A stretch of 63,999 bases of DNA, filler included, from Sphacelaria rigidula (lineage: Eukaryota), in assembly GCA_964200075.2 (NCBI GenBank). It is 3 parts of 3 records of this genome, joined end to end, with 100 filler letters (N's around TTAATTAATTAA, not from the genome) between each part and the next. Parts side by side here need not be neighbours in the genome. Positions count along the whole stretch, not along the records: positions 1 to 21,541 come from CAXNAA020000409.1; 2 more parts are not named here. The stretch is one strand, 5' to 3'. Of this stretch, positions 4,560 to 58,891 are shown in pieces. The number at the start of each line of letters is the position of its first letter. Position 1 is the first letter of the stretch. A model generated the notes under the pieces. It had not been told where the DNA came from. It was given only the letters and a program-made list of their open reading frames with translations, and made no database searches. Made by a program: the position numbers and the translations under genes.

Positions 4560-7500
4560 AGATCAAATATTGAAAGGGTATCCTTGTCACCTGAACAGCA
4601 TGTACGAATTATCCAGATCACGACTCACGCTGCCCTTCTAAGAGTTGAGGTCAATTATTGGCCAATGAAGTTTAATGAAAACGCTGTGGTCATTTCGGGT
4701 TTGTTAAAAATCCGAACGGATGACCCAGATCTGTCTCTTGACGGCGGTTCGGTCACGGGAACTTCCCATACATGCTCAATCCAGTGGTTCAAAACGACAA
4801 CAGGTACTTTAGTTGGCCTTTGATACATCATGTCGAACAAAGAGAACATATCATCATACGAAGAGAGTCGGTCGCGACAAGCAAGATCTTGGCAGGTCGG
4901 CGCCTGGTGCGATCGTTGTTTTTTCGGGCATGGCGTGCCTTGTTTGACGAGAAATCGGGTTGTTTCTTGATTCTTAAGGCAAAGTGACAGTATCTCACGT
5001 GATCTATTCCACGGATTTGTTTTGAAAAATCACATCTGCATATGTCGCACCAGACGTGAAATGAGTACAACAAAAGCATTGGGGACTGGTATGTCCATAG
5101 CCTCTACCGCGGGCTGGCTGTGGCATGTCTAAGCGATGTAACTGCAGCTCTCGCCGTCGGTGTAAGATACCGCTACATCAACCACTGGGTCGTGGTGCAA
5201 CGCAGCGTTGTCTCGTGTGGGTGGGGCGTGGCGTGGCCCCTTACAGCCATTCCGTGCCTTTGTCATTGCAGACCTTTTGCCCATAATTCAGCTGTCTTTC
5301 GGAACGGAACACACGAAATACTGTAGCGGGCTACACGAAATCGAAGAGCCAAATGATGATTACATGTCCCCAAGAGTTGGTTGCTGAAGAATGATAATAT
5401 ACTTCATTCCGTGCCGCTGATAGAAGGAACCTCACTGTTGGCTTATGGGTGGATATGTTAGAGATACATGATCAAACTCTATGTGGTGAGCTTGCATGCC
5501 CAAGAAGACTTGGCCTGGCCGCTGAGACCCGAGCAAATGCGTTCATGTAGGTAGAGGTACACATGGGTGCGACGGGGACTCCGATGCTCCTGATCGTTCT
5601 GGCTCCTCGACAAAATGATAGCTTGCGTTTATTGTGCCGTTGCCACACCGCGTATAGTAACCTGGCTTCACCCACGGTTTGGAATGACTCGAGGGTTATT
5701 ATCGTAGTATAGAACAATGATCATTTGGGGTGCGGGAGCGACGTTTTGCAGAAACACAGGATGGGCGTTTTCAGTATTCCGCACGCGGTTCGGTTGAGGC
5801 GAGGCGTTCTTTCCCACCCGCGAGAAGCAAACAAGGTGATGTAAGCGATCGTGATCGGCACTTGCCGGCCGGTTCTGCGCTTCAAGTTGGGAGCTGTATC
5901 ATCTAAAGCGAGTTGTCTGAGGCGGAAAGGTGGCCTCGCTAATTCTGCTCGTTGTCCGTCGTTTTGAGTCCAGATGCATTTCACAAAGCCCAGCAAAGGA
6001 AGGAGATGAACGATACAAAACGCAGTGAATATTACATTTCACCTCGAAGCTGTCCACACGTTGATGGCGAGATACAAGGCGCAAAGCTCGATAGCCCGAG
6101 GCGTAGCACCGATTCAGCGGGTCGATTGTGTGATTGAGTTTGTTTCAGCCGGCCATGAAATGAATCAGCGTTTTCTGTTTTTCGGAGAAGTGCCTGAAGC
6201 TGACGGTTTTGGTGGGAAGCAAACGAAGTGACAAGCTTCGACGCATATTCCTGTTGCTCGCCCAATATCGAAACAACTCCATTGAAAGGCATGGCTCCAT
6301 ACTGCGGTGGGGGTGGACTGTGGCTACCCCTGAACGTGTCAGGCTGTCCAGCTTGATTCTGTGTAGTTGGCGAGGCATGTCTGGGAATACTGAGTACATG
6401 GTTCCAACAATTGTGCGTTACGTTCACGTGGCATAGCACGGAATCTCTCCACACTGGTGTGTGGTTGTGTGCGCCGCATGGTGTGGCTGAAAAAGCTTCG
6501 AGTTTCCATTTTTAGCTTTCCGGTAGTACTCGAACAACTGCACATGATTCGGTGAAGCCATCCAGGAGCAGAAATGACGCGGACCTATCACAGCGTTTTG
6601 TTGTTGTCCCGTTGCTTTTTCTCGCGGTCCGAAACGTTCGATGAGACAGCTGCTTACCTCTTGGCAAGTTTGGATGTGATGGCTAGTCGTACAGGCCAGG
6701 ATTGGTTGGTCATGATGGTCTGAGCAGGGTCGGGTATCTGGGATACCACACCATGTTGCGGAGGAGTTGTGGCCGAGCGCTGGTTGACCTTGCGAGCATG
6801 GTACTACCTCTCATGCAATCAAGTGATCTTACAGGGAGTCAAGAGAGCAGCCGAAGAACTGAGGCCTCTCGTCGCGGAGTTTCACGGAACTCAGGAAAAC
6901 CTCTCCTGCACACATGGTCGGTGTGGGCATGATGGAAACACAAACGCACGAAGTTCACGCACTTGAGAAGTGGCTCACAATATCCCTACACATGGCCATC
7001 GCAGAAGGTTTCACGTCTACAGGGAAGTAACTACGTCAGGGTAGAATGCCGACGAAGAGTTGTGAACACAATATTCTAGCGGTGGTGTGAGGGCATGAAA
7101 TGTAGACGATTCAGACGATATGACAAACGGGGCGGCAAACGGTCACGCATACGGTGGTGGGACATGACTCATCCACTGTAAAATGTCCTTCATTCACGAT
7201 CATACCAACCAGTCTTCCCAGCCGGCAGCCTTTCTTCATGTCCGTTCGTTTTGAAATAGTCCAAATCCAGTTCGGGTAGAGTTTACCCCATATACTCGGG
7301 TCTTCGAAAACAGACGTGAGTGCAGTACCCGAACAACTGCGTGTAGTATGGAGATACTACCCAACTCTACTCAACCAATCGGTTGAGCATTGATATCATA
7401 CCGAAATGATACACTACTATATGCCCGGGTATTGCTAAGATTACCCACCCGCAATTTGGGTAAAATATTGACACCTTATAATTTTTTCTGAAGTGTGGGT

Positions 7501-9241
7501 GGAATATCGAGATCGTGCCAATTTCCACCGAAGCCTTGAATAGAGTTTTGAGGTGATACCCATTTCATCCAGAACTTGCGCAGAGAAAGTACCCGACACG
7601 GGTACTGTATCATCCCGCGTACTCAAAAGTATACATACCTTACCCGACTTGCCCTTGAAATTGTCATGACTTGTTGTAGTCAGCCAAGGTCACTTGTACC
7701 GACGGCACTCGGTTTCGCGGTGACATGAACGATGGATCAAGCGTTCATAGTTCATTCATTGGTTGTCCCCAGCACTAATATTTCCCGACCGCCACTTCTG
7801 ACTGAGTCTGCACATGTAACGGGGCAGATGATGTGTATCAGTGTCCTGCTGAGGCCAGCAGAATACGTGTCCGCCAGGATCATAAACGCGACCCTGCTGT
7901 ATATGGTGAGCGTTAGCATTGCTTTCCTATTTTGCGACCGGACTGCAAATATAACATACCGACAAAAAGAACAAGAGGCAAATGCATGATCGGAACATGA
8001 ACTCGCGGTCGACCCAAACAAGCGAAGGCCAGCATATATTTTCTTCACGTACGCCTTTTGCTCAGATCTACCGTCGAAAGGTAGTAAAAACACCAGTGTA
8101 GAAACACGCCAAAGGTCACGACCTATAGGGATCAGATTGTCTTGGCTCGGATATTTCCGTTCGAGGCATTCGACTCTTGACCCCTGGCGCTTCGTTTGAG
8201 CTCTGCAGCTGCCAGTCGCAATGACCGCGAGCAATTCCTTCGCATACTCCTGTAGCGTTCGGTTATTGTGTTGTATGAATAGACATTCATTATCCTTCGA
8301 GATTCTTTCCGCTACCGCACTTCGCCCGGTCCTTCCACCCCCGTATATTCTGTTCCTGTTCACCTCCGGCAAGCTGTATTTATAGCACGTGCGAATGTGG
8401 AACGCTTGGAGCGAGGGAACGTGACCCACGACAAGCTTGGGGCAACCCATCTAGCCTCTTGTGTTGGCCCGTTTTGCAAACCTGCTCCTGCCTTCTCGTC
8501 TCCCTTTCCCTCCTCCCAATGATCTCGGGGGCTGGTCGTGTTTTTCTAGTCAATCAAAGCCAAACCAAAGCTTCAAGTGTGCTGTCCACAACGCGATGAG
8601 TGATGGCCGCGAAAGCAATCCACCTCATGATGTTTATCATGCCGTCAAGTAGAATGTGGTTGTCAGCGATGTGGTACTGTACACGTTCGAAACGAAGTAA
8701 GTCGAGGTACACGAGCGACTGCGAAGAAAAATGTACACCTGGTGGCCAAAATGGGCAAGGTTTCGACAAGAACGGATAGACCTCTATTGTAGGGGACATA
8801 AATGCCGGCATGGATACATGCCTTTCTTGCCGCTTGTGGCCGCTTAACACGAAGCACATTTCTTCAAGTTCCTGAAACCTTGCGACTGTTCCAAGTGCCG
8901 TTCTCGTGTATCTGTTGAGAAGCACATCGATATCGCGGGTTGGCAGCAGGAAGAATGGTATCGAGTCAACCCCTCGTCACTTTTGCCTCGGAAGGTGAAC
9001 GGCTGGCCTCTGTGTACCCTGAAGAATTCAGGGGTGAAGAGAAGCGCGTTTCCGTGGAGTATATATACCTCATGATGTCACGTGTACGTGTGTGGCGTGA
9101 TCCCTTGGTGTTCCCGTGTGGCCATCGAGTGACCACCTCCGGCCTGTCTTTCTTTGCCAATCCCCCGTTCTCTTTTTTGACGCTGTCCGCTGTGTTTTTT
9201 GTTACATGTGACTGGAATCGCACCAAATATGTACCGAGCAG

Positions 9242-12200
9242 GCTGCGAGAGCTAGCGCTGAATTTGTTCAAGTAAAGCGTAGCGCCGCCGAGGCCTGCGA
9301 AGAAACTCTCTCTTTTGCCGAATCTCGTGCGATCTCTCGTCAAGACGCTATCGAAGCCCGCGCCAAGGCTAGTGCCGAAACTGCCGCTATGAAGGCCGCG
9401 TCGGAGATGTCGGATCTCACTTCTCGGCTAGCAGCGCAGCAGCACCGGAACGACGTTGTCAAGAGCATGTTGCGGGACGCGGAGCGCCAGAGAGCGGAGG
9501 AGATGGAACGCTCCGAGTCGACGCACCGCCAGCTCGAGGCGGCCGCCCAGAAACGTTTGAAGGACTCAATCACCAGGTCCACGAATATCGAGGAAGCCAT
9601 GCAGGCTTCGCTCGAGAAGGAGCGACGGAGGACGGAAGACGCCGAGGGCAGGATGCGGGCGGCCCTGGAGAGGATCACCCACCTCGAGGCTGAGGCGGCG
9701 CAACGAGAGACCAAGACGCACGCACTTGAGGCCAAGGTAGGGCGCCGTACTGACAGGGGGTGTTACGTTCATGGCCTTCCGGGGTTACTGGGAGAACACT
9801 TCTCCTTGCGCCGACTCGACCTCGACAAAGCCACAGCGGCCTCGCTTCGTGCTGTTCGTTGTTGCTGGTGTGTCATTTTTTACTGGAGAGACGCGCAAAG
9901 CTAAGAAACATATTCTCCAGCAGGTGTACACTTATTTGCAGGAGAGGGACACAAACGTTTTCAGCTAATGGAAGGAGTATACACTTCACCTTGCATGTTG
10001 CCATGAGAGCTGTGCATTTTCAGACAAGAATGTTCCATCGGAAGATTGAATCGTTATCGCGTGGTGCGCAGGTAGCACTGCACCGTGGCACCCAGAAACG
10101 AGTGGTAACGGAACGGCTCTAGTGCTGCGATTCGCAATGATGCTCTCTCTCTATCTCTAGCACCCATGCTGGGCGCCGCGATGCAGCTCCTAAACGATAC
10201 TCACGAAATAAAATAAATAAGTTGTGCCCTTGCCTCGGCCCCCCTCGTCCGTCGCTGAGCAGCTCGGGGGCGCTTGCTGACTGAGCACAGGCTAGTGAGC
10301 GAGGAAAGAATGGTGTCCATGGAGGGCGACTTGAGCGCTGCGGCGTCGCGAGATGCCGAGGCAAGTGGCCTGACTCGTGGCAGCACTTGACCCTCTTGCC
10401 TTGGCATCTTGCTGCACCGCAGCGCTGATCTCGTTCTTCATGGACACTATCTTTTCCTTGCTCGCCGATCCGCGCTCAGTCCGCTCGTGCACCTGAGCCA
10501 CTCCGCGACGGGGGAAAGGAGGGTAGGGGAGGCTAGCGCCCACGTGGTCATCAAGTTTGTGAGCACTGTTTCCAAGCTGCACTGCGGCGTCGGGGACTGG
10601 CCCCATTGACAGAGAGAATCATCGTAAGACATGATGAGCGAGGTATTCCGTTACCGTTCGTTCCTGAGCACCATGTGCAGTACTACATGCGCACCGAGCG
10701 ATGGCTTCAAGTCCTACACATCGCGTTCGCCCCCCGTGTTTTGTTGTTGACACTCATACCGTGATAGTGAAGACTACATATCCCGGCACCATGCTTCCCG
10801 ACTAGCCGGGTGTTTCTAAAAGAAATACGTACACCAAAGTAGCTCTGCCGTAGATACTGACGTAGTTCTCAAAGTTTCGTCACCTCCCGCTCTCGGTTTA
10901 TCCCTCCCTCCATGGCTAAATATGTCAGATCCAAGAGCTCAACGACCACGTAGTCGCCACAGAGACCAGGCTAGCCGAAGCCCTCGTTACAGAGGCCAAG
11001 GCTCTCCACGACATTGAAGGGGTCAGAGAAGACCGCTTCGAGTACGAGATACTGGCCGCGGAGGCTGCCGAACGATCTGATGGTATGAGAGCGGAGAAGA
11101 ATCTCGCATTTAAGACGGCACAGGATGCGGGGAAGAAGGTGATAATTCTGTCGGTGATCATGCTTTCTTCGTTGTGGTACTTTATTCTGTTCTTGGAAGG
11201 GGGAGGGGAAAGGGAAGCGGCTGTGAAGCTTGGGTGCTGTGCCGTGTCATGCAGCGCTGTGACGTGACTGGTTTCATTGTCGCACATGAACTGACCCCAG
11301 CCGTAGTCACGAGACCGACGCCCCCAAGATGAGCCAAACGATAGCCCTGGTTGAAGAAGAAGGAAAGTCGAAAAGACATGAGACGGAGAGGACACGGTAA
11401 ACTAAATAGCCTCAAGCCAACAACACAAAACCAGAAACCAAGATGAAAAACGATAGGAAAGAAACGGGGAAGCGTTGGAAATAAAACAACGAAGTTTTTG
11501 CGACGAAAACGAAATAAGAAAATAGCACCACAACTGGCCGGCCCCTGCAGCACGTTTTCAAGTGAGAAAGATTGCGCCCATACGCCTAGCCAAACCAAAA
11601 GGCCGTGGGAGCGAGCGGCTTGCGGCCCAGCCGTTTCGGACCATTCTATTTGGGCACAAGCTCTGACCCATCCTGAGCCTCACTGAAACAAGGCCCCACA
11701 TTTCCTCTGTAAAACACTGAGAGAGAATAAATAGAGAGAGACAGAGAAAGGCAGAACAGAGAAGAAGGGAAATGCGGAAGCGGCGAAATCCGCGGACAAC
11801 AGGGAGCATGTACAAGAGCACACTTAGAAATACCGCAAGACCACAAGCCAAGGGGGAAAAGGCAACAGCCAATGAGCGAAGACAGGGGTACATATAGTAT
11901 ATCTCTCTTCGTGATAGCTCAGCTTCCCCTACTTATCCCTGTTTGAGTACAGAGCGGGACACTCTCTCGACTATCTCCACCCTGGATTCCGCGCGAGCTG
12001 TTGCTGTAGCCGTCGCTGTATCATCAGTAGCGGCTTTCTCTCCGATTGGCGGCTCTCGGCGCAGAAGCCCTCCGTTTGTGGTAAAGGTCCGATTGGAGTT
12101 TGTCCCCGCGTCGCCACGTGTCCTCGAACGCTTCCCCCACGTTCTCGACTCAAAGATGCCACTTGCTCATGTTTTTCTCGGCCGCAGATACCCAATTCGT

Positions 12201-15034
12201 GGTGGCGTTATTTTGAGCTTACTGTTGTAATTGTTGTGTACTCTGCTGCATCAACTATATTCTTGTGGCTGAGCTTGATCTCTGTGTGCCGTATGTCAGC
12301 GGTTGACGCTGTGCTGTGCTGTGCTGTGGTGTACTGCTCCTGTGCCGGGCTGCACTACTGTATCCTTTGTATAGCGCGTTGCTGTTGGGCCGACGCCATG
12401 ACTTTAGCTACACGCTACACGTGGCACGTTGACAGAACGCTCGTCCGGGGCGCGTTGTTACGCCATCACGAATGTGATGCATTTCCATCTCCACTGCAAC
12501 ATATGCCTTCAAGACAAAAGACTACTGTACTGTGCAACCATGCTATCATTTTATCATACTGTCATGCGATGGTGTTCGATCGCGCTATCGGATGACGCCT
12601 CTTCTCTTCCAACATGTACATCGATCGCAGCTCGACGTGTGCACTGCCAGCTTGGCCGCCTCCGAGGGCCAAGTCACCGCCCTGACCAAGGAAAACATGG
12701 ACATGAGGTGGGTGGACGGCTGGCTGTGGCTCCCCTCTTGCGCGCGAGCAAGCCATGGGTAGTATGTATGTGCGATGCGTTGAGGTGCAGTATGCGTGTA
12801 TACTGGTAGAGGAGGAGAGTAGTGAGCATTCAGTCTCTGTTTGTGAGTTGTTCCTGAAAAAAAAAAAAAAAGCAAGAGTGGTGTCTTTTGGGGTCTGGAT
12901 AGAATCGGCAGTCTCTGCTGAACATCGTGTAGAAAATTCAAGGCCGACTGCAGTAGTAGCTAGATGTCCATGTGCCCTCAGTCTTTGGTATTTGTCTCTG
13001 TACAGTTGACCCACTCTCCTTCTCTGTTGGAGACGTCACGTGCTATCACAAAACGGATGCTTGTTTTTCCAAGCGTGTGCATACTGAGAAAGTATTGTTT
13101 GTGGACAGCGAGTACGTGTAGTGACATGATGAATCTGCATGGGCTCGGTTTCCTGGGTGGTTGTGACGCGTGTTTTGTTTTTTGGATCCATTGGTGGATG
13201 CATATATCTACGTGAAACGTCTACGGGGGCTCTTGGAAGTCAGAACGTTTTGCTGCAAGGATGATGAAATGGGGCGGGGGGAGAAGACATACCAATAGCC
13301 GCTTAGCGGCTGAAGGATGGTAGTCGCAGGTGCCTTAGTGGACCTAGAGAGAGCTGTTTCGCGTCTCTTTGGTCTGACTCGATGACACGCATGTTTCGGT
13401 GCTGCTCTATGATTTCCCGTCGTACAACACTCCTGAATTACCTCTCTCCCCGACCCCGTCCTCAGGACGAGTGAAGTTTCGTGATACCAATCGATCTGTC
13501 CTCCAGCGTGTGTGTACATGTGCTTCACCCCGTCTACTTTGTACCGACCTCTGTAGCAGGCGTTCGTCGGTTACTCCGCGATCGGTATACTTATCCTTCC
13601 GACAAGGGTCTTTATTATTCATTCTTTTTTCGGTATCCACTGCGGTTTTGCATCGGCGTTCACGTGTTCTTTGGTGGGTCGAGTTATTTTCTTCTTCTCT
13701 GGTCCAGAACTCGCGTTTTTGAATCTGTTTACGATAACTGACCCGACAGAATCATCCCCAAACGTTCTCAAGAGAGTAAGTATTGCGGTGATTTCGAGCA
13801 AGCAAACACCTGATCCAATCAGAATATAGATCACCCTTTCGAAAAAGCCACGCCAGTCTCTTTCTCTTCAGTTGACGGCTTGCTGGGTCTCCTCGCCATG
13901 CTGTTGTCGTTGTCCGGCGATGCTGTTCACGCGTCAACAGAGATGATCTCGATAACCGGGCTCACACCATCAGCGGGATGAGCGAGGAGATCGTGGCGAT
14001 TTCACTTTATCTCGAGGACATCAACAACCCAGAGGGCTACACTCTATCCCAGGTGCGTCCGTGTGTGAGACAGAGGGACAGACAGACAGATAGAGAGGAT
14101 GATCGATCGGTTTCCTCGCATTGGCTGTTTCGCTGCCAATCCCACGAAATGGTCACAAAGTGGACGTACTTGAGGCAAATGAGCGGAGACACGTGCTCGA
14201 GAAAAGCAGAATAGGAACGGCAAAGGAAGAGGGGAGGTACCAAGAGACGATCGATGATGTTGATGTTCCTCGTTCGTGTTTCGGAGTGTCTGCTCGAACA
14301 AACTCCACAGAAATGACCTATGGCGAAATTGTAAAACCCATTTTCCAGTTCCTGTCCTCCCTCTGAATGCCTGTGCGCAACGCGCACACGCGATAAAACA
14401 CATACAGGGCACGATGTTGCGGGCTTTTATTTTGTCGTACGCCTCTCTGCCGGCCACGACTCGCCGAGAGCTGGACGACGTCGTGACGGCAGATCTCTAC
14501 GGTGACGTCGGGCCCAGAAATATTCGCAATCTCACGGCGGCCATGGACCACATGGCCTCAGCTACCGGCTTCAGGCTCGTGAAGTGGGTTCCCGGGAGCA
14601 GCATCTTCGCCGTGCTGGTCCACGAGAGCGGCCTGCCAGAGGTTGCTGTCATCGCTTGGCTGACCGGCGTGACGGTTTACGCGGCCATAATCATCGTCAC
14701 TAGCATCTGGGTGGTTATCGCTCGCGTGCTTGCCGTCACCCGGCACACCGTCCCGCAAGCCCTCGGACGGGGGGCATCGGCAGCCAGGCACGCCGTGGCC
14801 TGCGCATTGCAGCGGCTCGCAAACAGCGTCCGCGCAGTCGATGACCTCTTCGCTCGCGGTCGCCACAGGATCGAGGCAGCCTGGGACCACCCCGTACAGG
14901 CAGCAGACGACCTATTCATGTTCGTACTGGCGGTGCTGAGGGTGGATGGCCGAGTGTTGTCCGCCATGTTCGGGGTCATGACCGGGATAGCGCTGGTGCT
15001 TGGGTGGCTGGTGGTGGGCGTGGGGCAGGAATAG
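9242..15034 (+). CDS. 3' part of an unknown coiled-coil protein with two C-terminal hydrophobic (probable TM) segments; 5' exons unresolved
   Basis: Phase-consistent exons 9242-9736, 10929-11138, 12631-12707, 13941-14052 and 14408-15034 (stop). A/E/R-rich heptad sequence (e.g. ERRRTEDAEGRMRAALERITHLEAE) is followed by hydrophobic stretches VAVIAWLTGVTVYAAIIIVTSIWVVIA and VLSAMFGVMTGIALVLGWLVVGV. Confidence 0.72.
10249..10511 (+). repeat. Intronic long imperfect inverted repeat (117-bp arms, 29-nt loop); candidate hairpin RNA
   Basis: 10249-10365 aligns without gaps to the reverse complement of 10395-10511. Hand count: 86/117 Watson-Crick pairs plus 14 G-U pairs on the + strand transcript. 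Confidence 0.85.
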
Positions 15035-15410
15035 GAAGCGGCGACTTGGTCGGTGCCGTGGTGAAGGGGTTGCAGGCTGTGTGGGTGTGCGTGAGCGGAA
15101 ACATACTGTAGTCGACAAATGTTGACATTTGTTTTTGTTTTTGTTCCCCCCAACAGCTGAGAGAATGGGGATCAACATATGGAGCATGTGTCGTTTTGGA
15201 GAAGGATATTGCCGTTGCCTATTAGTAAGTGATGTTGATGGGAGCACGCCTTTCGTCGTCAGCTGGTCTGTATTGCTTCGCACGATGGTCTTGTGGGAAA
15301 GGAGCCGCTGTTTGAGCGTTATCGCCCTCGGCGGGGGCTCTCCCTTGAGATACTCTACGTCGTTAGAGGGCCATGTTCTCTGCGTGTCGTGATTAGCGCT
15401 GTAGGCATAG

Positions 15411-15485
15411 GGGGCGGGGCGTACTCATTTGCTGCTTGCCTTAATCGTTTGACCATTGACCACTCATCCCTTTCGAGACGGAGCA
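15411..15485 (+). repeat. Short interspersed repeat, copy 1
   Basis: GGGGCGTACTCATTTGCTGCTTGCCTTAATCGTTTGACCATTGACCACTCATCCCTTTCGAGACGGAGCA is nearly identical to 43098-43173. Confidence 0.8.
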
Positions 15486-15775
15486 CCTGCTGTAGGCATG
15501 GGGTGAGAAAGGGGGGAAACGACGGAAGCAGGGTGTGTATGGCTTTACAGGCCTCTATGTTGACACAAAATGCGCAGGGAGTGGGGGGAAGCGCGCCAGT
15601 GGATTTGGTTGCTGGGTTTACGGGTAAGGCGTTGCTTCATGATGTATCGTCACCTTTGGCATGAGTGACGCCACTTCTTGCATGTCATGGCCCACGGAAA
15701 GAACGAGGAGATTGCGGGATGTATCTCGGGGGAGCAAAGGACAGTCATTAGTGCGGTGTGGTGATGACGTCTTTG

Positions 15776-15826
15776 TTTTATTTTACTTTTACTTTATTTT
15801 ATTTTATTTTATTTTATTTTATTTTT
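15776..15826 (+). repeat. (TTTTA)n low-complexity tract
   Basis: Directly visible TTTTA/TTTTAC iterations. Confidence 0.85.
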
Positions 15827-16782
15827 GTCCGTTTCCTCTTGTTTCCATCTGTTTTCTTTTGTTTCGGTTTTTCATCAGTTGGTTCGATTTGATCCGTTGT
15901 GTTCTTCCAGACAATCCTGCGGTGCGATTTTTCCTGATGAAAGCGCTAATTTCGCGTTGCGCTTGGGATGGGTGCAGTACTATCCAAAATTCAGTTTCAT
16001 TTCATATCCGCTCGATTTGATTCGATCTGATTTGTTCTTTAGTTTATGCTATTCGATGCTGTTTTGTTTCTGTTTTCACTTTCGCGCTGACAGCGTGGCT
16101 ACTTACTTTTTTTTGCAGTTTTGGTATCGTTTTGGAGCGCGTTCAGTCCCACCTGTGCAGAGGTCTTGTTATTGATTGTAGCGGCGTTCCCTCGCAGCGA
16201 TCTATAATCTGTCGCCGACTGCTTCTACTTGGGTTATGTTATCCCCAGAGCCCGGAAAATGAGGGGGGGGCTTTGGACGTGCTGAGGTTAGCGTTGGGGT
16301 GCGCAATGCACGTGCTGAGACAAGTCGGACATACGAAGGTGAAATCTCGAACACTTGTCACACTTGTCACGTGCTAAGTTACGTTATTTCCTCTGAAGTA
16401 ATCATTTTTCGATTTGCCCTGCACCTGGGGATGGAAAGGGGGCGGGGGATAAAGGACAACTCGACTACCAGCATCATACACTAAGTGCAGTAAGTCAACC
16501 CGCGATGCGGGAGGATGATACTGTATGTGTGTGGCAAATATGACGCCATGTGCCGTTGTTGCCAATCGAATGCAGGGCTTAAAGCGTGGGAGAGAGAGAC
16601 TGTGTGTAAGAAGCTAGTCAGTGATAAAGGGCGCAAAATACTGCTGAAAGGGGTCGGTATGTGCGGTAGAGGCGCACACGGTGATGGGCACAGTTCAAAC
16701 CCGACGCCTGATGAGTGGCCGCCTCGACGCAAGACCTCTGGTCGAACGGCTCACTATATCTATTCGGTGGTGTTCCACTGCG

Positions 16783-19700
16783 TCAAAGCTTAGAGTTCCC
16801 AAAAGGAGAGCTTCGTTTGTCGGACGTGAAGGCGGAGAGGTTCGATTCCGTGCTCGATGCTTCACACTGGAGAGCCGGCTGTGCTCCGTGGCTTTGTCGG
16901 TTCCAGACCTGAGGAAGGGGCTGATTGCAGGTGGTGCGGAACGGGGCTGACACTGCGAGCATCGTGTCTGTTGCGGTTGGGGGCGTGGACATCACGATGG
17001 CAGTTCTTGTGTTCAAGATTTGTTGCAAGGTCACGAGCGTGCTCGGCGTTGGCTCGGCACCTGGACGGTTTCGCAATGCGTGTTGCGATAACAGGGAGTC
17101 AGAACCTCGGTTTGTGTAAGAGATGCGGATGTATGTCTTGTCACAGGGTTGAAGGAAGTAGGATGACGATCACCGCTTCTCGTATTTGGAACGTTCATGA
17201 TGAGGTACGAGTTTGCTTGCGACGTGTTATAGGTCATCGTCGATGTTCCTGTGTTGACTGGGTCAGATATTTCGCCGGTGTGCTGTACACACGACAGCAG
17301 AAGAATCTTGCAAGTATTTCCATCTCTTGGCGCTTTTTTTGTTTGTTCGTTCCCGTGTTCCCAAAACGTACAGAGATGAAGAGTGGGGATGACGCCAAGC
17401 GTCCGCGGTGTAGGCAAGTGACGCTGGAGGTAACTTGTTTGGAGGGTTGTAGGTCATCATCCGATGTCGCGGTTATTCGGTTAATTCATGATTCAGGTTT
17501 TGAGTGAAGCAAAATTTTGTTTCTGACGTTTCCTTTAGCATCATTTTGCCCGTTCAGTTTGTGCAGCAAGTGGGGAAGTGATTGCCCTTGACCATCGCAG
17601 TGGAGGTGAAGAACAATATCATACGCCACTGGTGAACTTTGATAAATGAGCACCTTTTTGAGGCACGTGCTGTGCAACGTCGGCCGCGAAGTGTGCTGTG
17701 TGCTTTTGTACGACGTCTTACGCGCACGTCTGGGTAAAGCTCACCAGACAGCGAGGGCGTGGCGGTTGTTGTGCGTGTATGCACCTCAAGGCACCCGTCG
17801 AGGGCCTCCACTAGTGTGTTTTGTTTTTCTTGGTCCAATTCTCAGAATCGTTGTTCCGTTTGTCGTGCAGCGTGCGATGGCCGAAGGGGTGGTCCCATTT
17901 GTGTATTACTCGGTGGTTTGTGCCCCCTTGTTTCCTTCACTCCGCTTTTGCTCTTACTCGGTAGTTTGTATGAGCCCAATGGAGGGGAGCACCGCGGTAT
18001 CCACAAATCACGATTTTGCCGTTTCTGAGAATTCCCTCTACTAAACACGTCTTGTCCGTACCCTGTCGCCTGGGGTTCCCGATATCTTCGTAATGAGGAG
18101 GATGCTTGCTGTAGCGGACTGTTGCGCAGCCGCGAGCTCGAAGACCTGCCGTGTCGATGTGTGTGTATGTATGTGTGAATGTTTGACGCAGACCGTCATC
18201 GTATGTACAAAACAAAGTGCGAGTGCGACTGGGGACCATTTCTTTGGAGATGTCGTGGTCAGCAATCTACGATATTGTGAGGTTCCGTCGTTTGTCTTGT
18301 CTTGCATCCAGTACCCGTTCTATCGTTATTTGAGACTTACTACGGGACAACCGGAAACCCAACACGGAGGGACTTGCGTTCGTGGCGGGCACAAAAGCGT
18401 TTCGTGTGTTTTGACGACGTGTCTCCTTCTAGCGTGGAGCGCGCCTCGTCGTTCGGGTTGATGTAGACACCATTCGAAACTCGCCGTGTTTCGCTGCGTT
18501 ATTATTGTTGGGTGTGTGTACACATAACTCTCGTTAGTCCCTGGACCCCATCTTTGTTTCAACAGTGTCGTTAGTTTCTCAGCCGTCCCTTTGAAAGGGG
18601 TTGTTGTCGATGCTTCCTATTGCGATCGTGAGATCCACTGAGAAACGTTGGACTGTGATATACTCGAGCGGGTTTCCGAGCTGTTCACATATGGGTGTGG
18701 GATGATGTGGTCCGTGTGCAAGATTATGTGTGTTTCAGTCGCTTGCGTGCTACAGTGTGAGGGTCGATGCGGTGTATGAACTATATCTGTTTCCTTCATC
18801 ACTGTTCGGGATGAAATTGCAGTGCCGCCGGATGATCATGATGGGTACAGATATGTGCCTTTCGGCTTGGGCAGTCATTTTCCATTGTGCATGTGTGTGC
18901 ACTACTGTAGAGGAGCTGCTGCTGATGGCCATTGTAGCTATGCCTGATGCAGAGGGTAGTGTCATTTTGTTAAGGAGGAGGGCAGACGAGTTGTGATTGG
19001 CATGCGTGTTAGGCTTCATGATGTCGCGCTACATATGGGTAGCCCGCGTTGTCGTCTAGGGTCACGAGCTTTGACCAATACAGGCAAGAGGGGTCTTTTC
19101 GGGCTCGCCCGCCCCACGCCACCGTTTGAACGGTCTTCAGCGTGACACGAGTGTCTGTCGATGGCTTGTGAATGTCGTGATATTGATTTCCGGTCCGCAC
19201 GTACGAAACGAACTTACCTTTCACACAAATTCGTGAAACCGCATCCACACATGCATACTGTTCTGATTGTTGAGTGTATTGAGTTATTGCCTGTTGGAAA
19301 ACTGTGGGGGTTTTTTCCCACTACTCTTGAGTGTCGTCGATTAGAGGTTTCCTGTTCGTTTCAGAGGTTATATTCTGCGTTGCACTTATTTTAACCAACT
19401 ATGGCATGCTATATAAATGCGAGCTGAACTATACGGGTGCGGGAGGCGGGGTTCAGGCCTTTTGGGCTGGATGGTGTCAAACTGAGGGATTCGGGGGTGG
19501 AGATGGGAGGAATAGGGGTAATGGGTTACGGTTGAATGGGAAGAGAATGGTGCTAGTAAAGTGCAGAGGGGGGCAAGGGTTGGCTGGACTAGGGCACATA
19601 TCATTGGTATTTGGTGTTGTTGTGGTGCATTTATGACCGCGCTTCCTCGTCTCGCCGAAGCAGCTCCGCCGTCAAGCTGCGGTGGCTTTACAGCGGGTCT

Positions 19701-20882
19701 ATTAGTTTGCCAAACCAACTTCGCTGACGACCTAGGTCGTGCGACAACCGTGTGCGCCTCCCCTTTTCTTTTGTTTCCAGCGCTGTTTACTTCGAACTTT
19801 CTCGGCCGAATCTGACCGGAGGCGGTATTCCTTGCGCCCGAGAGATACGGTTTCCTTTACCATCGCATAGCTTCATATGGAGGAAAAGGAACAAATGATC
19901 TCGCACAACATGTCAGCCGGGCCTTGTCTCGAAATCATTCGTAGTCGGCGTCACGATGCATGCATGCACGTTGCTTTGCTCTTCGCCACCCAACACTCAC
20001 GCATCATAAACAAGCACACATGGCTGTATCATAATACCTCATGTGAAAGCGGTACAGCAGCCCTCCGCTACAACATGATAAATCGACGTGATATCTCCTC
20101 ATTGGGTTGAATGGTACTACGCACTCCCCTCATGTTTATGTGGCAGGCTCAATGTCAGGCTGCCTTCTGGGCGATAATGCCCTCTCATTTGTACTGTATC
20201 TTCACCGTGTGCCTTGTTTGGAATAGCTCCACAGGTGAAGACCAGTCTCCGAGCCCGACCCAATGTTTCCATGGGCGATAAAAATGTGGATTATGGGCAA
20301 CGAGAGAGTACGTGTCACATGAATCCTGCAGTCACCCACAAGCCCTCCGAGGCACGAAGTTGCATTGGAGACCATGCCGCCATAGCAGGAGACATCGTTG
20401 TTGTCGCCCTGAAATCAGCTACAAGTCCACCGAGTTGTTTTTCAGCGCAATCAGGCGAGAACTCAAATATCTTGATTTTGGTGTCAAACCGCAATCGGGA
20501 ACCGCCATCAGGCCGTCTTTGACAAAAGCTCCAGGCGTGCAGTATTGGGACGTCTGCTCATCTCTATGGATAGACGGGGCTGAAGGATGTAGAGTACTGT
20601 ACATTTTACTTGAGATACCAAGTAACTCACCACCCGGTCACGTTCCCCTAATACCGCGATATTTTTTAACAACTTTAGTACGGTTGAGTCGGCCAAGCGG
20701 GCACGGTATGCAACTGATGAACATGCCACGCGAGAACTCGACGAGCGGTCCTTCACCCACAGGCGGAAAGGATGGGCTTGTTTCTCTCGCTGCTCCCACG
20801 CCATCCATGCAGCTGGTTCTGGTGTGTCTTTCCCGTTGAAATTTGAGGTACCGATAGCTCGAACACAGCAGAGTACAGCCAT
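16783..20882 (-). other. Scattered exon-like segments of a possible unknown minus-strand gene
   Basis: Open stretches, some with plausible splice sites, near 17529-17669, 19590-19811 and 20630-20850. No family recognised and no complete model built. Confidence 0.2.
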
Positions 20883-21541
20883 AAAGCACAGTACAGCGTG
20901 GTCACCGCTGTATACCGCGGTACGGTGACCTGGGAAGCGTGCCTTCCCTTACTGCTGATAGTACTGCTCGTAGTACCTCCTTCTTCTCTGAGGGGTGATG
21001 GTAAGGGGATTTTCTTCCTGAATTTTTTGATTTTCTTGGTAGAAAGAAAATTGAAGCTTTCCTCTGACTTCTCCAAAATGAAAATACCGGAGAAAATCCG
21101 ACGTTAGATTTTCGGATACAAGTAACTTGTGGTCAGACTAGGCTTTTGCTTTTCATGCGTGATTCCCCCCCAAATACTTGTGTGTCTCGTTCAAAAGGGG
21201 TCATTCTGCAGCGGAAATCCCGCCGAGGCGTTACATTTGCTTGAGTTTAGTGTCGAAGATCGAAAAACAAGAACCCATAATGCGAATCATATGCGTGCAT
21301 AAAAAGGAAAAGCCTAAGTCAGACGTTAGTGTTAATCATTGCCTGACCTCATGTCAGTAGCGTTTCACCACTTGACAGTGAATCCTGGAAAATGGGGTCC
21401 ATCTCAAAGGTGAGGTTCAAGTGGCATTTCTCTTTTGCAGGGATGCCGCGAAACACTTACGATCGAGCGAAACCATCCTCCTCCCCAAATGTCCGCAGCA
21501 GCTAAGCAGCTGTGGCTAGGTGCACCTAACGAATGCGGTGT

Positions 21542-21641
21542 NNNNNNNNNNNNNNNNNNNNNNNNNNNNNNNNNNNNNNNNNNNNTTAATTAATTAANNN
21601 NNNNNNNNNNNNNNNNNNNNNNNNNNNNNNNNNNNNNNNNN
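21542..21641. other. Artificial 100-nt assembly linker: N44-TTAATTAATTAA-N44
   Basis: Symmetric N padding around a 12-mer that places stop codons in all six frames; identical to 43174-43273. Confidence 0.95.
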
Positions 21642-24600
21642 AAGCGTTTGGTCCATTAATGATGCAGACACTCCCCGCCGCTGATAGCCATCAAGAGCCT
21701 ACTCTCAATCGTATCATCTACTCTCAATCTCACGAAAACATTGTTTGCAGCGAAAGCGGTTGAGAGTCATTTATCCTTCAGCCCATGTACACATGGACTG
21801 GGGGGCGAAAGGATGAATACCTTCCAGCAACGTTTTCTGCGTGTCGGATCCCATGCGCCGGTGACGATGCAGTATGCGGGATTTGCCCAGCAGCTGAAGC
21901 TACTCGCAATATAAATTTCTTTTCCCCCAACCTCTGGATGGAATTGGAAGGAAAAGTAGAAACTTGTTTCGAGCTTGGTCTGCTGTTCAAATTCCGAATC
22001 GGCCAGTGTGCATCGGAGTTGCGCAGCAGAAGAAGCTGTTCGAAATAGATCCCTTTTTCGCTCATGTCAAAAATGGGCGAAAAAGGGATCGATCTTGAAC
22101 AGCTTTTTCTGCTCTTTCAAATAAATCCTCTTTTTTAATGCCGAAATAACTCGGGCGAGAAGAGGATCTGTTTTGGATCTAGCTTGTCCTGCTGTCCGGA
22201 ATAAATTCATTCTCGCTCAATTCAAGTCGGGTGAAGAGGAATTTACCTCGGACAGGAGGACAAGTTATTGAAATTTATATATTATATAATTTTACAGATT
22301 TTGTACCAAAATATTTGGAATTTTCGAGAAAAAGGCTTGAGGTTTTTTCACCAAAACACTGCCACATGACTGTGCAGGGCTTTGCCGACGTGCCTACACA
22401 GGGCTGCAAATCCAACCCTGGGGAAAACCCTATCAAAACGCTGCGATGGGTACAGATTTTGCAATTCACTGTCAGGGTTTTTTCACATGGACTGTGGAGG
22501 ACCCTGTACGGACCCTGCGTAGTGCGCCCCACAGGGTGCTATCTGTCCACGTGTGAGTAACGTTCCGCCTTTTCGATAATATGGAAGCTTGAATCACGGT
22601 GAGGTGTACGTTCTACTAGTTGAAGTCATGTTCCGCAGTTTCGATCATCTCGAGCTCAGACAGGAGTTCGTCGCGGGAATAGAGTTAGGCACCGTTAGCT
22701 TTAACAGCTCGCTTCACGGGCGATGCCGCACATGGGAGAAAGCTGCATGACACATGACATTCGTCGCAGCACACGTGACAAGCGTTTTTTGCTTAATAGA
22801 TTCATATTCATCAACAAGAACAGGGCGAGTTAGTGCAAATTTCTCCAGATATGGGTCTCACGTGGTGCGCATTGGTCTTGAAACACACATCCTCGTCTGT
22901 TGTACAAGAAATAACCTGTTTGCTGCTGGAGGTTCGGCGCTGTGAACCAACGGCGACGTTACGCCTTCGGTGGTACTACCTCATCACTGCACAGCGGCAG
23001 GGTGCAGGATTTCACAGCATACCACAGAACGCCACATCTTCAGCCTATCCCTATACTGCATTGATTTCATGCTGTCCTATGCAGTTCGCCACATCATCCA
23101 CGCAACCGCTTGTATCTGCGGTCAACGTGCACGCGGGATATCATTTTGTAAAGCTTTTCGTGCTGTCTCTACAGCGTACGTTTGCCCCAGGTTGCGCACG
23201 CAGGAGTGAAAGGCCGCCTCTGCTGCTGTCATGGCTGCCTGTATCTTGGGCGGAGGTGAATTTTGCTGCGCGAGGGGCGACCATGTCCGGGCTTTCAAAG
23301 TCGGCAACCTGCAAGCACCGAGGGCTCGTTCATCATCAGCTGGAGAACCAAAACATGGGACATGTCTCACTGTTGTACTGCAGCACAAGCACACTCACTT
23401 CCGCTCTCGTGTGTTGTAGCCGTCACTGTTGTAGGGTGTGTTTGAACCTTGCGACGACGGTTTGGTCTCCGCTGATATTGCCCGATGTGCTGTAATCATT
23501 GTGTTCGTCTCTCTGTAACCAAGTCGTAACATTTAGTATCAGGCTAGACGCAGTGCTATCGAAACACTTGACTGTTAAAATCTAAAAAGGTTAAATTACC
23601 CTGACCCATCACTTGCGCGATAGCGAGTACTGCTGGGTACCGGCACGGAAACAGCACCAGTACACAACGCTGGAGGCTGGGCCAGACCCCATGCTCCAAT
23701 GACAGGGACGACGCTTAGCACTGTGCAGATATACTGCACCGCCAGGGTCCTGTGTGCACCCGTCAACATCACAGCTGTCGCGGTTGGCATCGGCGCCAGC
23801 GCTCACGGCCACGGCAATATCAATTTTGCATCAAAGAGAAGCTGATGCTACTGTATACAGTGCGTCTTCAGGTTAAAAAAATCATTGCAGAACTGTCATG
23901 TCTCCTGTTCTGTGAAACCTCTGCACTCTATACACCACTGCGGTCATCTTATTTACAGTGTGCTACCCTGTACCTCATATAATGACGTAGGGGTTTGCGA
24001 AGTCAGTCGAAGAGTTCTTGTTTTTTCCCAAGTCCTTATTTTTCGACAATATTCCGAATATAATCTGATGCCGAATCTGCAATAACCTTACTCAACATCC
24101 AATTCAAAAATTGGAATTTTTCAGCAGAGGGCAGGGTACACCCTCCTGTTTTGCCCACATTAATGGGGTTCTCCTACAAGCTCCATTTTCGGCGCGATAG
24201 TTCAGCCCAGTAACACTTGTGAAGGTGAAAAAAATAATGGTCGGATATGCTGCCCAGGGACCTTGGGCATGGGTCTGGTGTTCAGCCAGCGTGCAGCGCC
24301 GCGCCCCAAAGCGAAAAATGCACTACCCTTTTTTGCTCCAAAAGCAGGAGGGTGTACCCTTTTCGTAAATTGCCCAGAAAAAAATTGCGACAACAGTCCT
24401 TGTACGACCATCTCCGGGCGGCTTGACTGCATGTTGAAACATGGAAATTACCCTGATATACAGTACAGTGCGGTACAGTACAGCATCTATCGTAGGCGAA
24501 GCTGTCTCAACGAAGATGACTACCGTTGTAATAATGGTTGTGCCGCAGTAGCTGGTCGCTGGTTGTCATGTTATCTCCAAGGGTGCCCACAAGTCAAGGG

Positions 24601-43173: not shown

Positions 43174-43273
43174 NNNNNNNNNNNNNNNNNNNNNNNNNNN
43201 NNNNNNNNNNNNNNNNNTTAATTAATTAANNNNNNNNNNNNNNNNNNNNNNNNNNNNNNNNNNNNNNNNNNNN
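43174..43273. other. Artificial 100-nt assembly linker: N44-TTAATTAATTAA-N44
   Basis: Same structure as 21542-21641. Confidence 0.95.
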
Positions 43274-43880: not shown

Positions 43881-44119
43881 CATGCCCAACAGTGGAGAGC
43901 GACGATGTCGTGGGTACATCAAATTTGACTCAACGGTCGACGGGGAAAAGGGACTGCTGTACCCCTCTCGCGATAAAAAATAAAGGCTAGCACCGCAACA
44001 GGACGGTGGGGTACTTGAAAAAAAAAACCTGTGTTGACCTTCCTGTGTGACCCCGGCGGGTGCGCCCACATATACCGAAAGGTGTAGACCGGCGTCCAGA
44101 ATAGATGGGACGACGACAC
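43881..44119 (-). repeat. Interspersed ~230-bp SINE-like repeat, copy A
   Basis: Its reverse complement aligns with 58969-59190 (shared TATTCTGGACG..TACACCTTTCGGTATATGTGGG..GGGTCACAC..GGAAGG.CAACAC..CGACCG..AGTC.AAT). Confidence 0.75.
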
Positions 44120-58100: not shown

Positions 58101-58891
58101 CCTTTTGGCGATCAAGAGAAAGTCAATCACCGCAGAGGAAAGATAGAGTACTACAAACAAAATAAAGAACATGAACTCCTGTATCGACCTTTCTCCTTTC
58201 TGACCCCTGCTGATATGCCCGCGTATATCGAAATGTGTAGAATGGCGTCCAGAATAGGTGGAATAACACAAACGCGCGTCCGCGGGGGCGTTAACTGCCA
58301 CCCTCCATGAGTGGCACCCACCCCTGCGTGATGGATTTTCAACTATTTTTTCCACCATGTCGGTATCCATGATACCGCACGGGGGGTCGTCGTTTACTCC
58401 CCCCATGATATAACGCCCATGGGGTGTATACGGCAGAAGACTAGTTATTGTCCACACAGTGTCGAATCTCTTGCAAGATGATGTATTTTGCTGTTGGTAA
58501 TCCAGGACTACAGAGAATGTTCTGACTTCGAAGCACACCGCACACCGTATCTTGTACATGGAAAATATTTTCTCCTTCTCGTTGATGTTTCCTCGTTCTT
58601 GGTGTGTGCCTTAGCTGCCCCCCCACCCCACCCCGCCCTCGCCCTCCCTACCCTTTCCCCTGTCCGTTTCGAGTTCCGCTCCAGGTATCTTCGGGTTGTG
58701 GACAAGTTCAACGAACAGAACGTGTCGGCCTTCTTGTCGGCGGGAGGCGCGAAGCTGATGCTGCTGCATGACGGAAGGCCAGACGAAGCAATCAGGAATT
58801 TCTTCAATGAGGTCCACGAACATTACGTGAAGGCACGTATGTATGTATGATGATGATAGAACATCGAGGTACCATATTGATGCCTGACTCC

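Follow-up and report, generated by a model that had tools for sequence, protein, structure and literature searches.

A fold-back at one splice donor, an intronic palindrome and a chance match in a coiled-coil gene of Sphacelaria rigidula

Results

Three fold-backs that an earlier note had placed at 5' splice sites of a single Sphacelaria rigidula gene do not form a repeated system. All three pairings can be found in the window, by which we mean the whole stretch of DNA analysed (63,999 nt of assembly GCA_964200075.2, filler included, in three joined parts), but one of them only at chance level. We consider it probable (roughly 0.7) that they are three unrelated things with no gene-wide system behind them: stem (a), a conserved cis element; hairpin (b), an intronic palindrome; and stem (c), a coincidence.

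The gene that carries all three lies on the + strand, with donors at 9737, 11139, 12708 and 14053. It has five exons, and its product combines a coiled coil with a hydrophobic tail. Exon 1 (9212..9736), coding and coiled-coil-like, is drawn from the start of the open frame at 9212, its true 5' end not being fixed, and ends in phase 0 at AAG·GUAGGG; it has three homologous ORFs (E 1e-53 to 1e-20), and RNA-type contigs match 9242-9635. Intron 1 (9737..10928; 1192 nt, GU..AG, phase 0) is modelled on frame continuity, with RNA-type contig pieces that adjoin it and no bridging contig among those shown. Exon 2 (10929..11138) is an open frame matched by RNA-type contig pieces at 10927-11136 (X1 and X2) with 0 differences; the flanking letters of the 210-nt piece that matches this exon are not colinear. 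Exon 3 (12631..12707) and exon 4 (13941..14052) are placed by open frames, splice motifs and the length of X2 record 11, which bridges 11136 to 14405: the 188 letters between its pieces equal 2+77+112-3 and thus fit the two exons. The last exon (14408..15034) has an open frame and RNA-type contig pieces at 14405-14972, encodes the hydrophobic C-terminal part and closes with a stop codon at 15032-15034. The model as a whole is built on phase-0 junctions and open frames, and the donors at 9737 and 12708 can, as far as we can tell, be taken as real. Intron 2 (11139..12630) also holds a high-copy repeat near 12012-12512, with a DNA-run depth of 7124 in that bin. The window further includes an ATP-citrate-lyase exon, closest to brown algae, with 78-80% identity to Laminaria, Ectocarpus and one further eukaryote record.

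When the exon-intron inverted repeat at each donor was compared with shuffled sequence, its score was reached by 0/300 shuffles at 9737, 30/300 at 11139, 222/300 at 12708 and 30/300 at 14053. A significant fold-back is therefore present at one donor of four, and the idea of a donor-centred fold-back repeated along one gene fails. The weaker stem claimed at 12708, stem (c), is a chance match. It spans 12650..12753 on the + strand across the donor and has 20 Watson-Crick and 4 G:U pairs of 32, yet 69/200 shuffles fold as well (z -0.36), 24/150 form as good a duplex (z -0.93), and its alignment score of 8 is reached by 184/300 and 222/300 shuffles. The proposed pairs have a probability of at most 0.002, and BLAST of the arms gave no match at E<=10.

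Stem (a) fares differently against its controls. Its exon arm (9684..9708, + strand) encodes LEAEAAQRE, the best conserved part of exon 1, and pairs with an intron arm at 9801..9825 (+ strand) through 21 Watson-Crick pairs and 1 G:U of 25, so that the true donor at 9737 is enclosed, as had been claimed. Complementarity of at least 21/25 with a loop of at most 150 is found at 6 loci in the window and at none in any of 30 dinucleotide-shuffled windows. The local alignment score of 17 is reached by 0/300 shuffles and, in codon shuffles, by 1/1000 in each of three designs. It is matched at 11 of 1252 sampled window positions (0.9%), from which a chance of about 3.5% follows that at least one of four donors would reach it by position alone. 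Folding energy (z -2.51, 3/200 shuffles as good) and duplex energy (z -1.79, 8/150) are less extreme. Stem (a) thus exceeds chance expectation as a repeat and, in folding energy, does so only modestly.

In the predicted structure, the outer stem has a pair probability of 0.93-0.97 across contexts of 161-1001 nt. An inner helix (9730..9776, + strand) is predicted in the MFE structure, with pair probabilities of 0.71-0.99 in a 650-nt context. In this helix the exon end GCCA(A) at 9731-9735 would pair with 9768-9775 and the donor GUAG at 9737-9740 with UUAC at 9763-9766 (probability 0.92-0.95). The donor nucleotides thus lie inside a helix in silico, as they do in stem-loops that sequester 5' splice sites.

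The intronic half of this hairpin coincides with a conserved block (9737..9830, + strand). Its conservation is that of translated read-through ORFs of relatives, the sole source for it, which align without gaps in MAFFT over the first ~31 intron codons (31-32 codons in two relatives). Identity is 18/31 with one relative (E 5e-9) and 13/32 with the second (by BLASTP 13/27 with one 2-residue gap, E 2e-4). Within the hairpin, 7-8 of the 9 exon-arm residues are identical in three homologs, and the read-through translations keep 5/9 and 7/9 of the intron-arm residues. From about 9830, the end of the hairpin, conservation declines; beyond it, 6/23 residues are identical in the sole homolog that continues. 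Replacements in the block are non-conservative: 4/33 score positive, compared with 51/120 in the exon (Fisher p 0.001, an optimistic value because P0122 and P0123 do not count as independent cases), and the mean score at non-identical positions is -1.05 and -1.29 in the block as against 0.04 and 0.12 in the exon. This pattern suggests constraint at the level of the nucleotides rather than the protein. However, in one variant contig of the DNA run 3 nt are inserted in frame after 9820; this, like the open frame of 31-32 codons, would also be compatible with a longer coding region or with an isoform that retains the intron.

Hairpin (b) is real but lies away from any splice site. The pairing first reported (86 Watson-Crick and 14 G:U of 117) extends to 99 Watson-Crick and 16 G:U of 141 between a left arm at 10228..10368 and a right arm at 10392..10532, which stay in register over 141 nt without indels around a 23-nt loop (10369..10391); near the loop there are long near-perfect duplex segments. 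The RNA fold has an energy of -209.3 kcal/mol, compared with -138.9 +/- 5.4 for shuffles (z -13.1, 0/100 as good), and the + strand folds slightly better than the antisense (-189.5, z -12.3). Each arm's only other match in the window is its partner (BLAST E 6e-16). The hairpin itself thus stands, whereas the GC donor assigned to 10361 does not: the motif occurs in both arms as part of the palindrome, and both arms are intronic, 491 nt inside intron 1 from the real donor. By BLAST within the window the hairpin shows no similarity to the exons of the host gene, and the translated arms match the host protein no better than shuffles do (52/300 and 44/300). Mismatches fall 14/10/8 by codon position, without third-codon bias, and the excess of G:U over A:C mismatches (16 and 11) gives no significant strand preference. 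DNA-run depth over the hairpin is 92, similar to the 69-119 of neighbouring bins. No second copy was found within the 64 kb, no target-site duplication was seen by eye at 10228/10532 or 10249/10511, the ends being fuzzy, and a search of Rfam yielded 0 matches at the gathering threshold (below it, the hairpin's best hit was mir-1265, at 18.8 bits against a threshold of 79).

Further long imperfect palindromes lie at 13-102, 22025-22113, 22183-22264, 45808-46036 and 56261-56508. Hairpin (b) is one of about six such local palindromes in the 64 kb, unrelated to one another, with no shared sequence found among those of the window. Hairpins are therefore a property of the whole window, also away from this gene. 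One other inverted pair, 58161/58973, is part of a dispersed repeat that occurs a third time at 44028-44108.

Discussion

The suggestion that a gene or genome places complements of exon ends just after its 5' splice sites, for control of splicing or by dsRNA, draws on the fact that stem (a) encloses a real donor, which its predicted fold also pairs, and on the centres of (a) and (b), which both lie 18-19 nt past an AG·G(U/C)A motif. With a single significant donor, a hairpin (b) whose arms are unrelated to exons and whose motif is mirrored, a stem (c) that is coincidental and similar palindromes elsewhere, we regard it as extremely improbable. Intronic complementarity to an adjacent exon end holds for (a) and not for (b), and a donor-sequestering stem, on predicted pairing and conservation in relatives, for (a) and neither of the others. 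Repeated local inverted duplication, the other explanation originally offered, fits better than a system, as a property of the window and not of exon ends.

A more serious competitor for stem (a) is that the block after 9737 is coding, through intron retention or a downstream donor, with the repeat arising incidentally from Glu, Ala, Leu and Arg codons that are mutually reverse complementary. In this sequence 55 codons stay open, the frame aligns without gaps in two relatives, the identity of 41-56% resembles the exon's 52-53%, the insertion variant keeps the frame, and the arms pair codon against codon. We nevertheless find this somewhat unlikely, given replacements unlike those of the exon, a closest relative that stops after 6 codons (tail lengths are 6, 33, 55 and 84 codons), the rarity of the repeat score in codon-preserving shuffles and the loss of conservation at the very end of the hairpin. 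Since its intronic half lies in a block with nucleotide-level-like constraint, stem (a) is best read as a conserved cis element: a separate short element at a single 5' splice site, in which the 25-pair outer stem and the donor-pairing inner helix would enclose the donor at 9737 and could limit access to it. A bolder version, decidedly unlikely in our view, makes it a conserved RNA switch that hides the first mapped donor of the gene. Folded together, the last part of the exon and the first ~95 nt of intron 1 would then make a closed domain, maintained among brown-algal lineages with only ~50% identity between their exon proteins; its opening or closing would choose between the spliced mRNA for the long, hydrophobic-tailed protein and a product left unspliced or ended early.

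Stem-loops that sequester 5' splice sites are exemplified by tau exon 10 and SMN2 exon 7. Stem (a) resembles them in that the exon end and donor are predicted to be paired while a flanking stem closes the domain, and in having a conserved intronic partner. It differs in size, its outer stem of 25 pairs closing a much larger domain of 92 nt, and in its host, a brown-alga-like stramenopile. In ADAR targets, editing-site complementary sequences pair with the exon; here, too, intronic sequence complements the upstream exon end, but the duplex is short and interrupted, and none of the RNA-type contigs shown lies on the stems. Template-switch or fold-back mutations create short local inverted repeats and would explain the many unique palindromes of the window, including the 25-nt one. 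They account for a mutational origin and not for a function, however, and do not suffice to explain why stem (a) is conserved in distant relatives.

Hairpin (b) is a 305-nt imperfect palindrome, wholly within the 1192-nt intron 1, that most likely arose by local inverted duplication. The event would be old, because the arms are now ~27-30% diverged. The hairpin would be transcribed within the host pre-mRNA and then removed with the intron. It belongs to the class of unique genomic hairpins frequent in the window. In the published accounts of Ectocarpus and Saccharina, 75% of miRNA loci are in genes; introns hold 93-97% of these genic loci, 90-94% share the strand of the host, foldbacks average 170 and 183 nt, genomic hairpins are the proposed origin, and many candidates lie on extended hairpins (PMC4513859, PMC5381526). 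Like the miRNA and hairpin small-RNA loci so described, hairpin (b) is intronic, can fold on the host strand, has a long foldback and is unique, apparently derived from neither a transposon nor host coding sequence. It differs in its length of 305 nt. Allen et al. 2004, as cited in PMC4513859, describe proto-miRNA hairpins that form when a target gene is duplicated in inverted orientation, and hairpin (b) shares with them a long imperfect inverted duplication, but not the similarity of its arms to the host gene.

It is unlikely that hairpin (b) works as a pre-miRNA or hairpin siRNA gene whose RNA, either the excised intron or a separate transcript, is processed by Dicer, although the slightly better fold of the host strand (-209 against -189.5 kcal/mol), the in-register arms with near-perfect segments near the loop and the mostly intronic, same-strand and unusually long foldbacks of brown-algal miRNA loci (PMC4513859, PMC5381526) speak for it. 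Its length is well above the published means, it lacks an Rfam match at threshold and a significant G:U strand asymmetry, and many extended hairpins fail miRNA criteria as set out in PMC5381526. An origin of the hairpin from a foldback or miniature inverted-repeat transposon, inserted into the intron and since decayed, strikes us as improbable. In its favour, transposons account for about 20% of intron sequence in Ectocarpus, and short non-autonomous DNA elements are common there (PMC12477816); the pair at 58161/58973 shows that a dispersed inverted repeat occurs in this window. Against this, hairpin (b) has no second copy in the 64 kb, a depth that is not raised and no visible target-site duplication at either candidate boundary, and the other local palindromes are unique as well; its copy number is judged from 64 kb and the depth of one DNA run, and old diverged copies may lie elsewhere in the genome.

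Had fold-backs been centred on one donor after another, as first proposed, the mechanism would have been new; the evidence does not bear this out. What the window does show is that unique local palindromes are common in this genome, and hairpin (b) is a large example in an intron, the kind of place where brown-algal microRNAs are proposed to originate. Stem (a) falls together with an intron start of unusually strong conservation, which makes it a candidate for a splice donor controlled through RNA structure. Among the titles and abstracts listed in literature searches, none showed a conserved structure-controlled splice site in brown algae; if the switch proposed for stem (a) were true, it would be the first described in this group.

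Architecture of the host gene

The gene that holds the three proposed fold-backs lies on the + strand of a window that is eukaryotic in character, with about 50% G+C and long GU..AG introns. Open frames, splice motifs and phases place the end of exon 1 at 9736 (AAG|GUAGGG), followed by intron 1 (9737-10928), exon 2 (10929-11138), intron 2 (11139-12630), exon 3 (12631-12707), intron 3 (12708-13940), exon 4 (13941-14052), intron 4 (14053-14407) and the last exon (14408-15034). Contigs from three runs, presumed to be RNA, align here in the manner of spliced cDNA. RNA-type contig pieces, 210 and 182 letters long and with 0 differences, cover exon 2, their flanking letters not being colinear with the window, and a single 964-letter contig matches 10984-11136 and 14405-14972 with 188 letters between the two matches. 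Since 188 equals 2+77+112-3, allowing for shared AG/CAG ends, exons 3 and 4 are matched by length, and this bridging contig with its length arithmetic supports the donors at 11139, 12708 and 14053. The donor at 9737 is placed by frame, by motif and by a GU kept at the same position in all three homologous ORFs of exon 1; no contig bridges intron 1 among the matches listed. Over 6000-21000, the same exons are also matched in all four runs (X1, X2, X7, X3) by contigs of 85-95% identity, which may represent a second allele, a paralogue or a related organism filed under that species name.

The host gene is without a Pfam family, and exon 1 found no match when searched against longer proteins. Among the 98 long ORFs of the window (11 + 87), Pfam recognized just two domains, ATP-citrate synthase (34831-35259, - strand) and Sedlin_N (58482-58847, + strand). 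The former is an ATP-citrate-lyase exon, and no other coding sequence found in the window is strongly conserved; its identity is 78-80% to Laminaria, Ectocarpus and one further eukaryote record, and 67-72% to other ochrophytes. Judged by this one exon, the DNA probably comes from a brown alga or a near relative. The two artificial joins at 21542-21641 and 43174-43273 consist of N runs flanking a 12-base six-frame stop word and divide the window into three contigs.

A predicted exon-intron stem at donor 9737

The earlier note described fold-backs centered on 5' splice sites: a stem (a) between exon 9684-9708 and intron 9801-9825, a long hairpin (b) at 10249-10511, and a stem (c) between exon 12650-12681 and intron 12722-12753. 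All three pairings are present at those positions, and (a) and (b) lie beyond chance, whereas (c) does not.

Stem (a) has 21 Watson-Crick pairs and one G:U pair in 25 positions. A scan of the whole window for inverted repeats that pair without gaps at 21/25 or better around loops of 3-150, with 30 block-wise dinucleotide shuffles as the control, found six loci, as against 0 in each of the shuffles. The local alignment score of (a), 17, was reached by 0/300 shuffles and, in all three designs of a codon-preserving shuffle, by 1/1000. Its folding energy (z -2.51, 3/200 shuffles as good) and duplex energy (z -1.79, 8/150) are modest; (a) is less striking as an energy than as a repeat because G+C-rich shuffles fold well too. 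The same score occurs at 11 of 1252 sampled window positions, and therefore a set of four donors would, by position alone, contain one or more with this score about 3.5% of the time.

The idea that such fold-backs recur at donors did not hold. An exon-intron repeat is significant at one of four donors, 9737; at the other three, shuffles reach the observed score in 30/300, 222/300 and 30/300 cases. Three of the four acceptors are null (300/300, 241/300, 266/300), and the borderline value at acceptor 13941 (11/300) is not notable, since nine sites were tested. Stem (c), across donor 12708, cannot be told from chance by its fold (z -0.36, 69/200 shuffles as good), its duplex (z -0.93, 24/150) or its alignment score of 8 (reached by 184/300 and 222/300 shuffles); BLAST returned no match, and the probability of the proposed pairs is at most 0.002. 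Set against the raw window background, (c) stands among the top 1.3% in duplex energy, which is explained by composition. The "donor-like" GAG|GCAAGU at 10361, on which the centering of (b) depended, is itself palindrome sequence, as the same motif is found when the other arm is read in reverse complement.

Conservation across donor 9737

In contexts of 161-1001 nt, the mean pair probability predicted for the 25-pair stem of (a) is 0.93-0.97. At 9737-9740, the donor GUAG itself is predicted to pair with 9763-9766 at a probability of 0.92-0.95, and the exon end GCCA with 9772-9775.

An exhaustive protein search with the exon yielded three homologs (E 1e-53, 1e-28 and 1e-20). These ORFs, all short and called on contigs 0.9-3.5 kb long, cross the donor into the intron. 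Read-through in the closest homolog stops after six codons. In the other two, the read-through aligns gaplessly with the window (MAFFT) over its first 31-32 codons, with 18/31 identities (E 5e-9) in one and 13/32 in the other; for the latter, BLASTP reports 13/27 and a single 2-residue gap (E 2e-4). The best conserved parts are the arms of (a), with 7-8 of 9 residues retained in the exon arm and 5/9 and 7/9 in the intron arm, and conservation drops at about 9830, where hairpin (a) ends; in the one homolog that continues, 6/23 residues beyond this point are identical. This conservation is viewed through translated ORFs, and the arm residue pairs E/L, A/R, Q/L and R/S are pairable through synonymous codons in any case, so that back-translation does not discriminate. 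Metagenome, prokaryote-genome and viral contig collections scanned with alignment A1 contained no related locus.

We considered whether the block after the donor may instead be a coding extension of exon 1. The frame is open and free of indels in the read-through of two homologs, and a variant in one DNA contig, after 9820, is an insertion of 3 nt, all compatible with coding sequence, which keeps this reading plausible. The replacements, however, are non-conservative, unlike those of the exon: 4/33 are BLOSUM62-positive in the read-through block vs 51/120 in the exon (Fisher p 0.001, the two homologs not being independent), and mean replacement scores are -1.05 and -1.29 vs 0.04 and 0.12. Tail lengths are also unequal, at 6, 33, 55 and 84 codons. 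Non-conservative replacement, the fading of similarity at about 9830 and the variable tails therefore favor a cis element over a coding extension, and the block looks like conserved non-coding nucleotides seen in translation. In the closest homolog, P0121, about 35 residues comprising the exon end and the first read-through residues (VGR..YV) are internally duplicated, a pattern that a tandem duplication of the donor region in that lineage would produce.

The hairpin within intron 1

The arms of (b) extend to 141 nt (10228-10368/10392-10532), with 99 Watson-Crick and 16 G:U pairs and a loop of 23. The fold is far more stable than its shuffles (-209.3 kcal/mol vs -138.9 +/- 5.4; z -13.1, 0/100 as good), and the opposite strand is nearly as stable (-189.5, z -12.3); the excess of G:U pairs on the sense strand, 16 vs 11, is not significant. 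The hairpin is not at a splice site: its start lies 491 nt into intron 1, and 396 nt separate its end from the acceptor.

The arms are 73% identical over 120 nt, differing by 27 transitions vs 15 transversions. Their mismatches have no third-codon bias (14/10/8), and their translations are no closer to the host protein than shuffles are (52/300, 44/300). We consider an old local inverted duplication the most likely origin. An origin of (b) from (a) or from the host exons was rejected, as the arms match neither in sequence and their translations do not resemble the host protein, and the left arm is unlikely to be a cassette exon (10286-10360, phase 0, GC donor), given that an upstream pyrimidine tract and a coding signature are absent and the GC motif recurs, in reverse complement, in the other arm. 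A transposon is a weaker explanation: the arms have no other match in the window, and DNA-run depth is ordinary (92 vs 69-119 in neighboring bins). Old, diverged copies may lie elsewhere in the genome. Rfam returned nothing at the gathering threshold and four weak sub-threshold matches in 9400-13000.

Hairpin (b) would be transcribed as part of the host intron. RNA-type contig cover is absent in bin 10008-10508, which contains (b) up to 10508, and was not counted as evidence; the last 24 nt fall in the next bin, which has some such cover.

Palindromes and other repeats in the window

Local palindromes are a property of the entire window. Five others, at 13-102, 22025-22113, 22183-22264, 45808-46036 and 56261-56508, are unique, 82-248 nt long and unrelated in sequence to one another and to (a) and (b); two are nearly perfect.

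Several further repeats were observed. Intron 2 contains a high-copy dispersed repeat (12012-12512; DNA-run depth about 7100 vs about 100 in neighboring bins), also present in RNA-type runs. Two inverted copies of a dispersed repeat (58161-58268 and 58973-59080) flank the ORF with Sedlin_N, and a third copy lies at 44028-44108; in animals, inverted repeats on both sides of an exon favor its circularization. Directly downstream of the host gene stop codon, some 75 nt (15410-15487) reach bin depths of 4e4-6e5 in all four runs vs about 30-130 elsewhere, and many contigs "go back" 56-74 nt there with G-rich loose ends, so that the stretch resembles a single unit from a tandem repeat, or an organelle-like sequence, of very high abundance. 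The plasmid collection (piece 15395-15500), Rfam (15250-15650) and a tRNA search gave no match. At 53124-53380, a tandem array has units of about 45 nt with mutually complementary ends.

Relation to known systems

Donor-sequestering stems have examples in animal genes. Stem (a) resembles these, and its predicted fold and indirect conservation suggest that it may belong with them. Among the titles and abstracts listed by the literature searches, none dealt with RNA structure around brown-algal splice sites.

Two studies of brown-algal miRNAs provide a comparison for (b) (PMC4513859; PMC5381526). As given there, 75% of miRNA loci in Ectocarpus and Saccharina lie within genes, 93-97% of these genic loci being intronic and 90-94% on the host strand; foldbacks average 170 and 183 nt, many candidates are carried by extended hairpins, and an origin of the miRNAs from genomic hairpins is proposed in both studies. 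By analogy, (b) fits these "genomic hairpins" and would be a new instance of the intronic hairpins found in that group.

The observation made in the earlier note thus holds in part. The donor-centered system that had been proposed is not supported, and its pieces are new members of kinds already known. The part worth follow-up is the conserved block at donor 9737.
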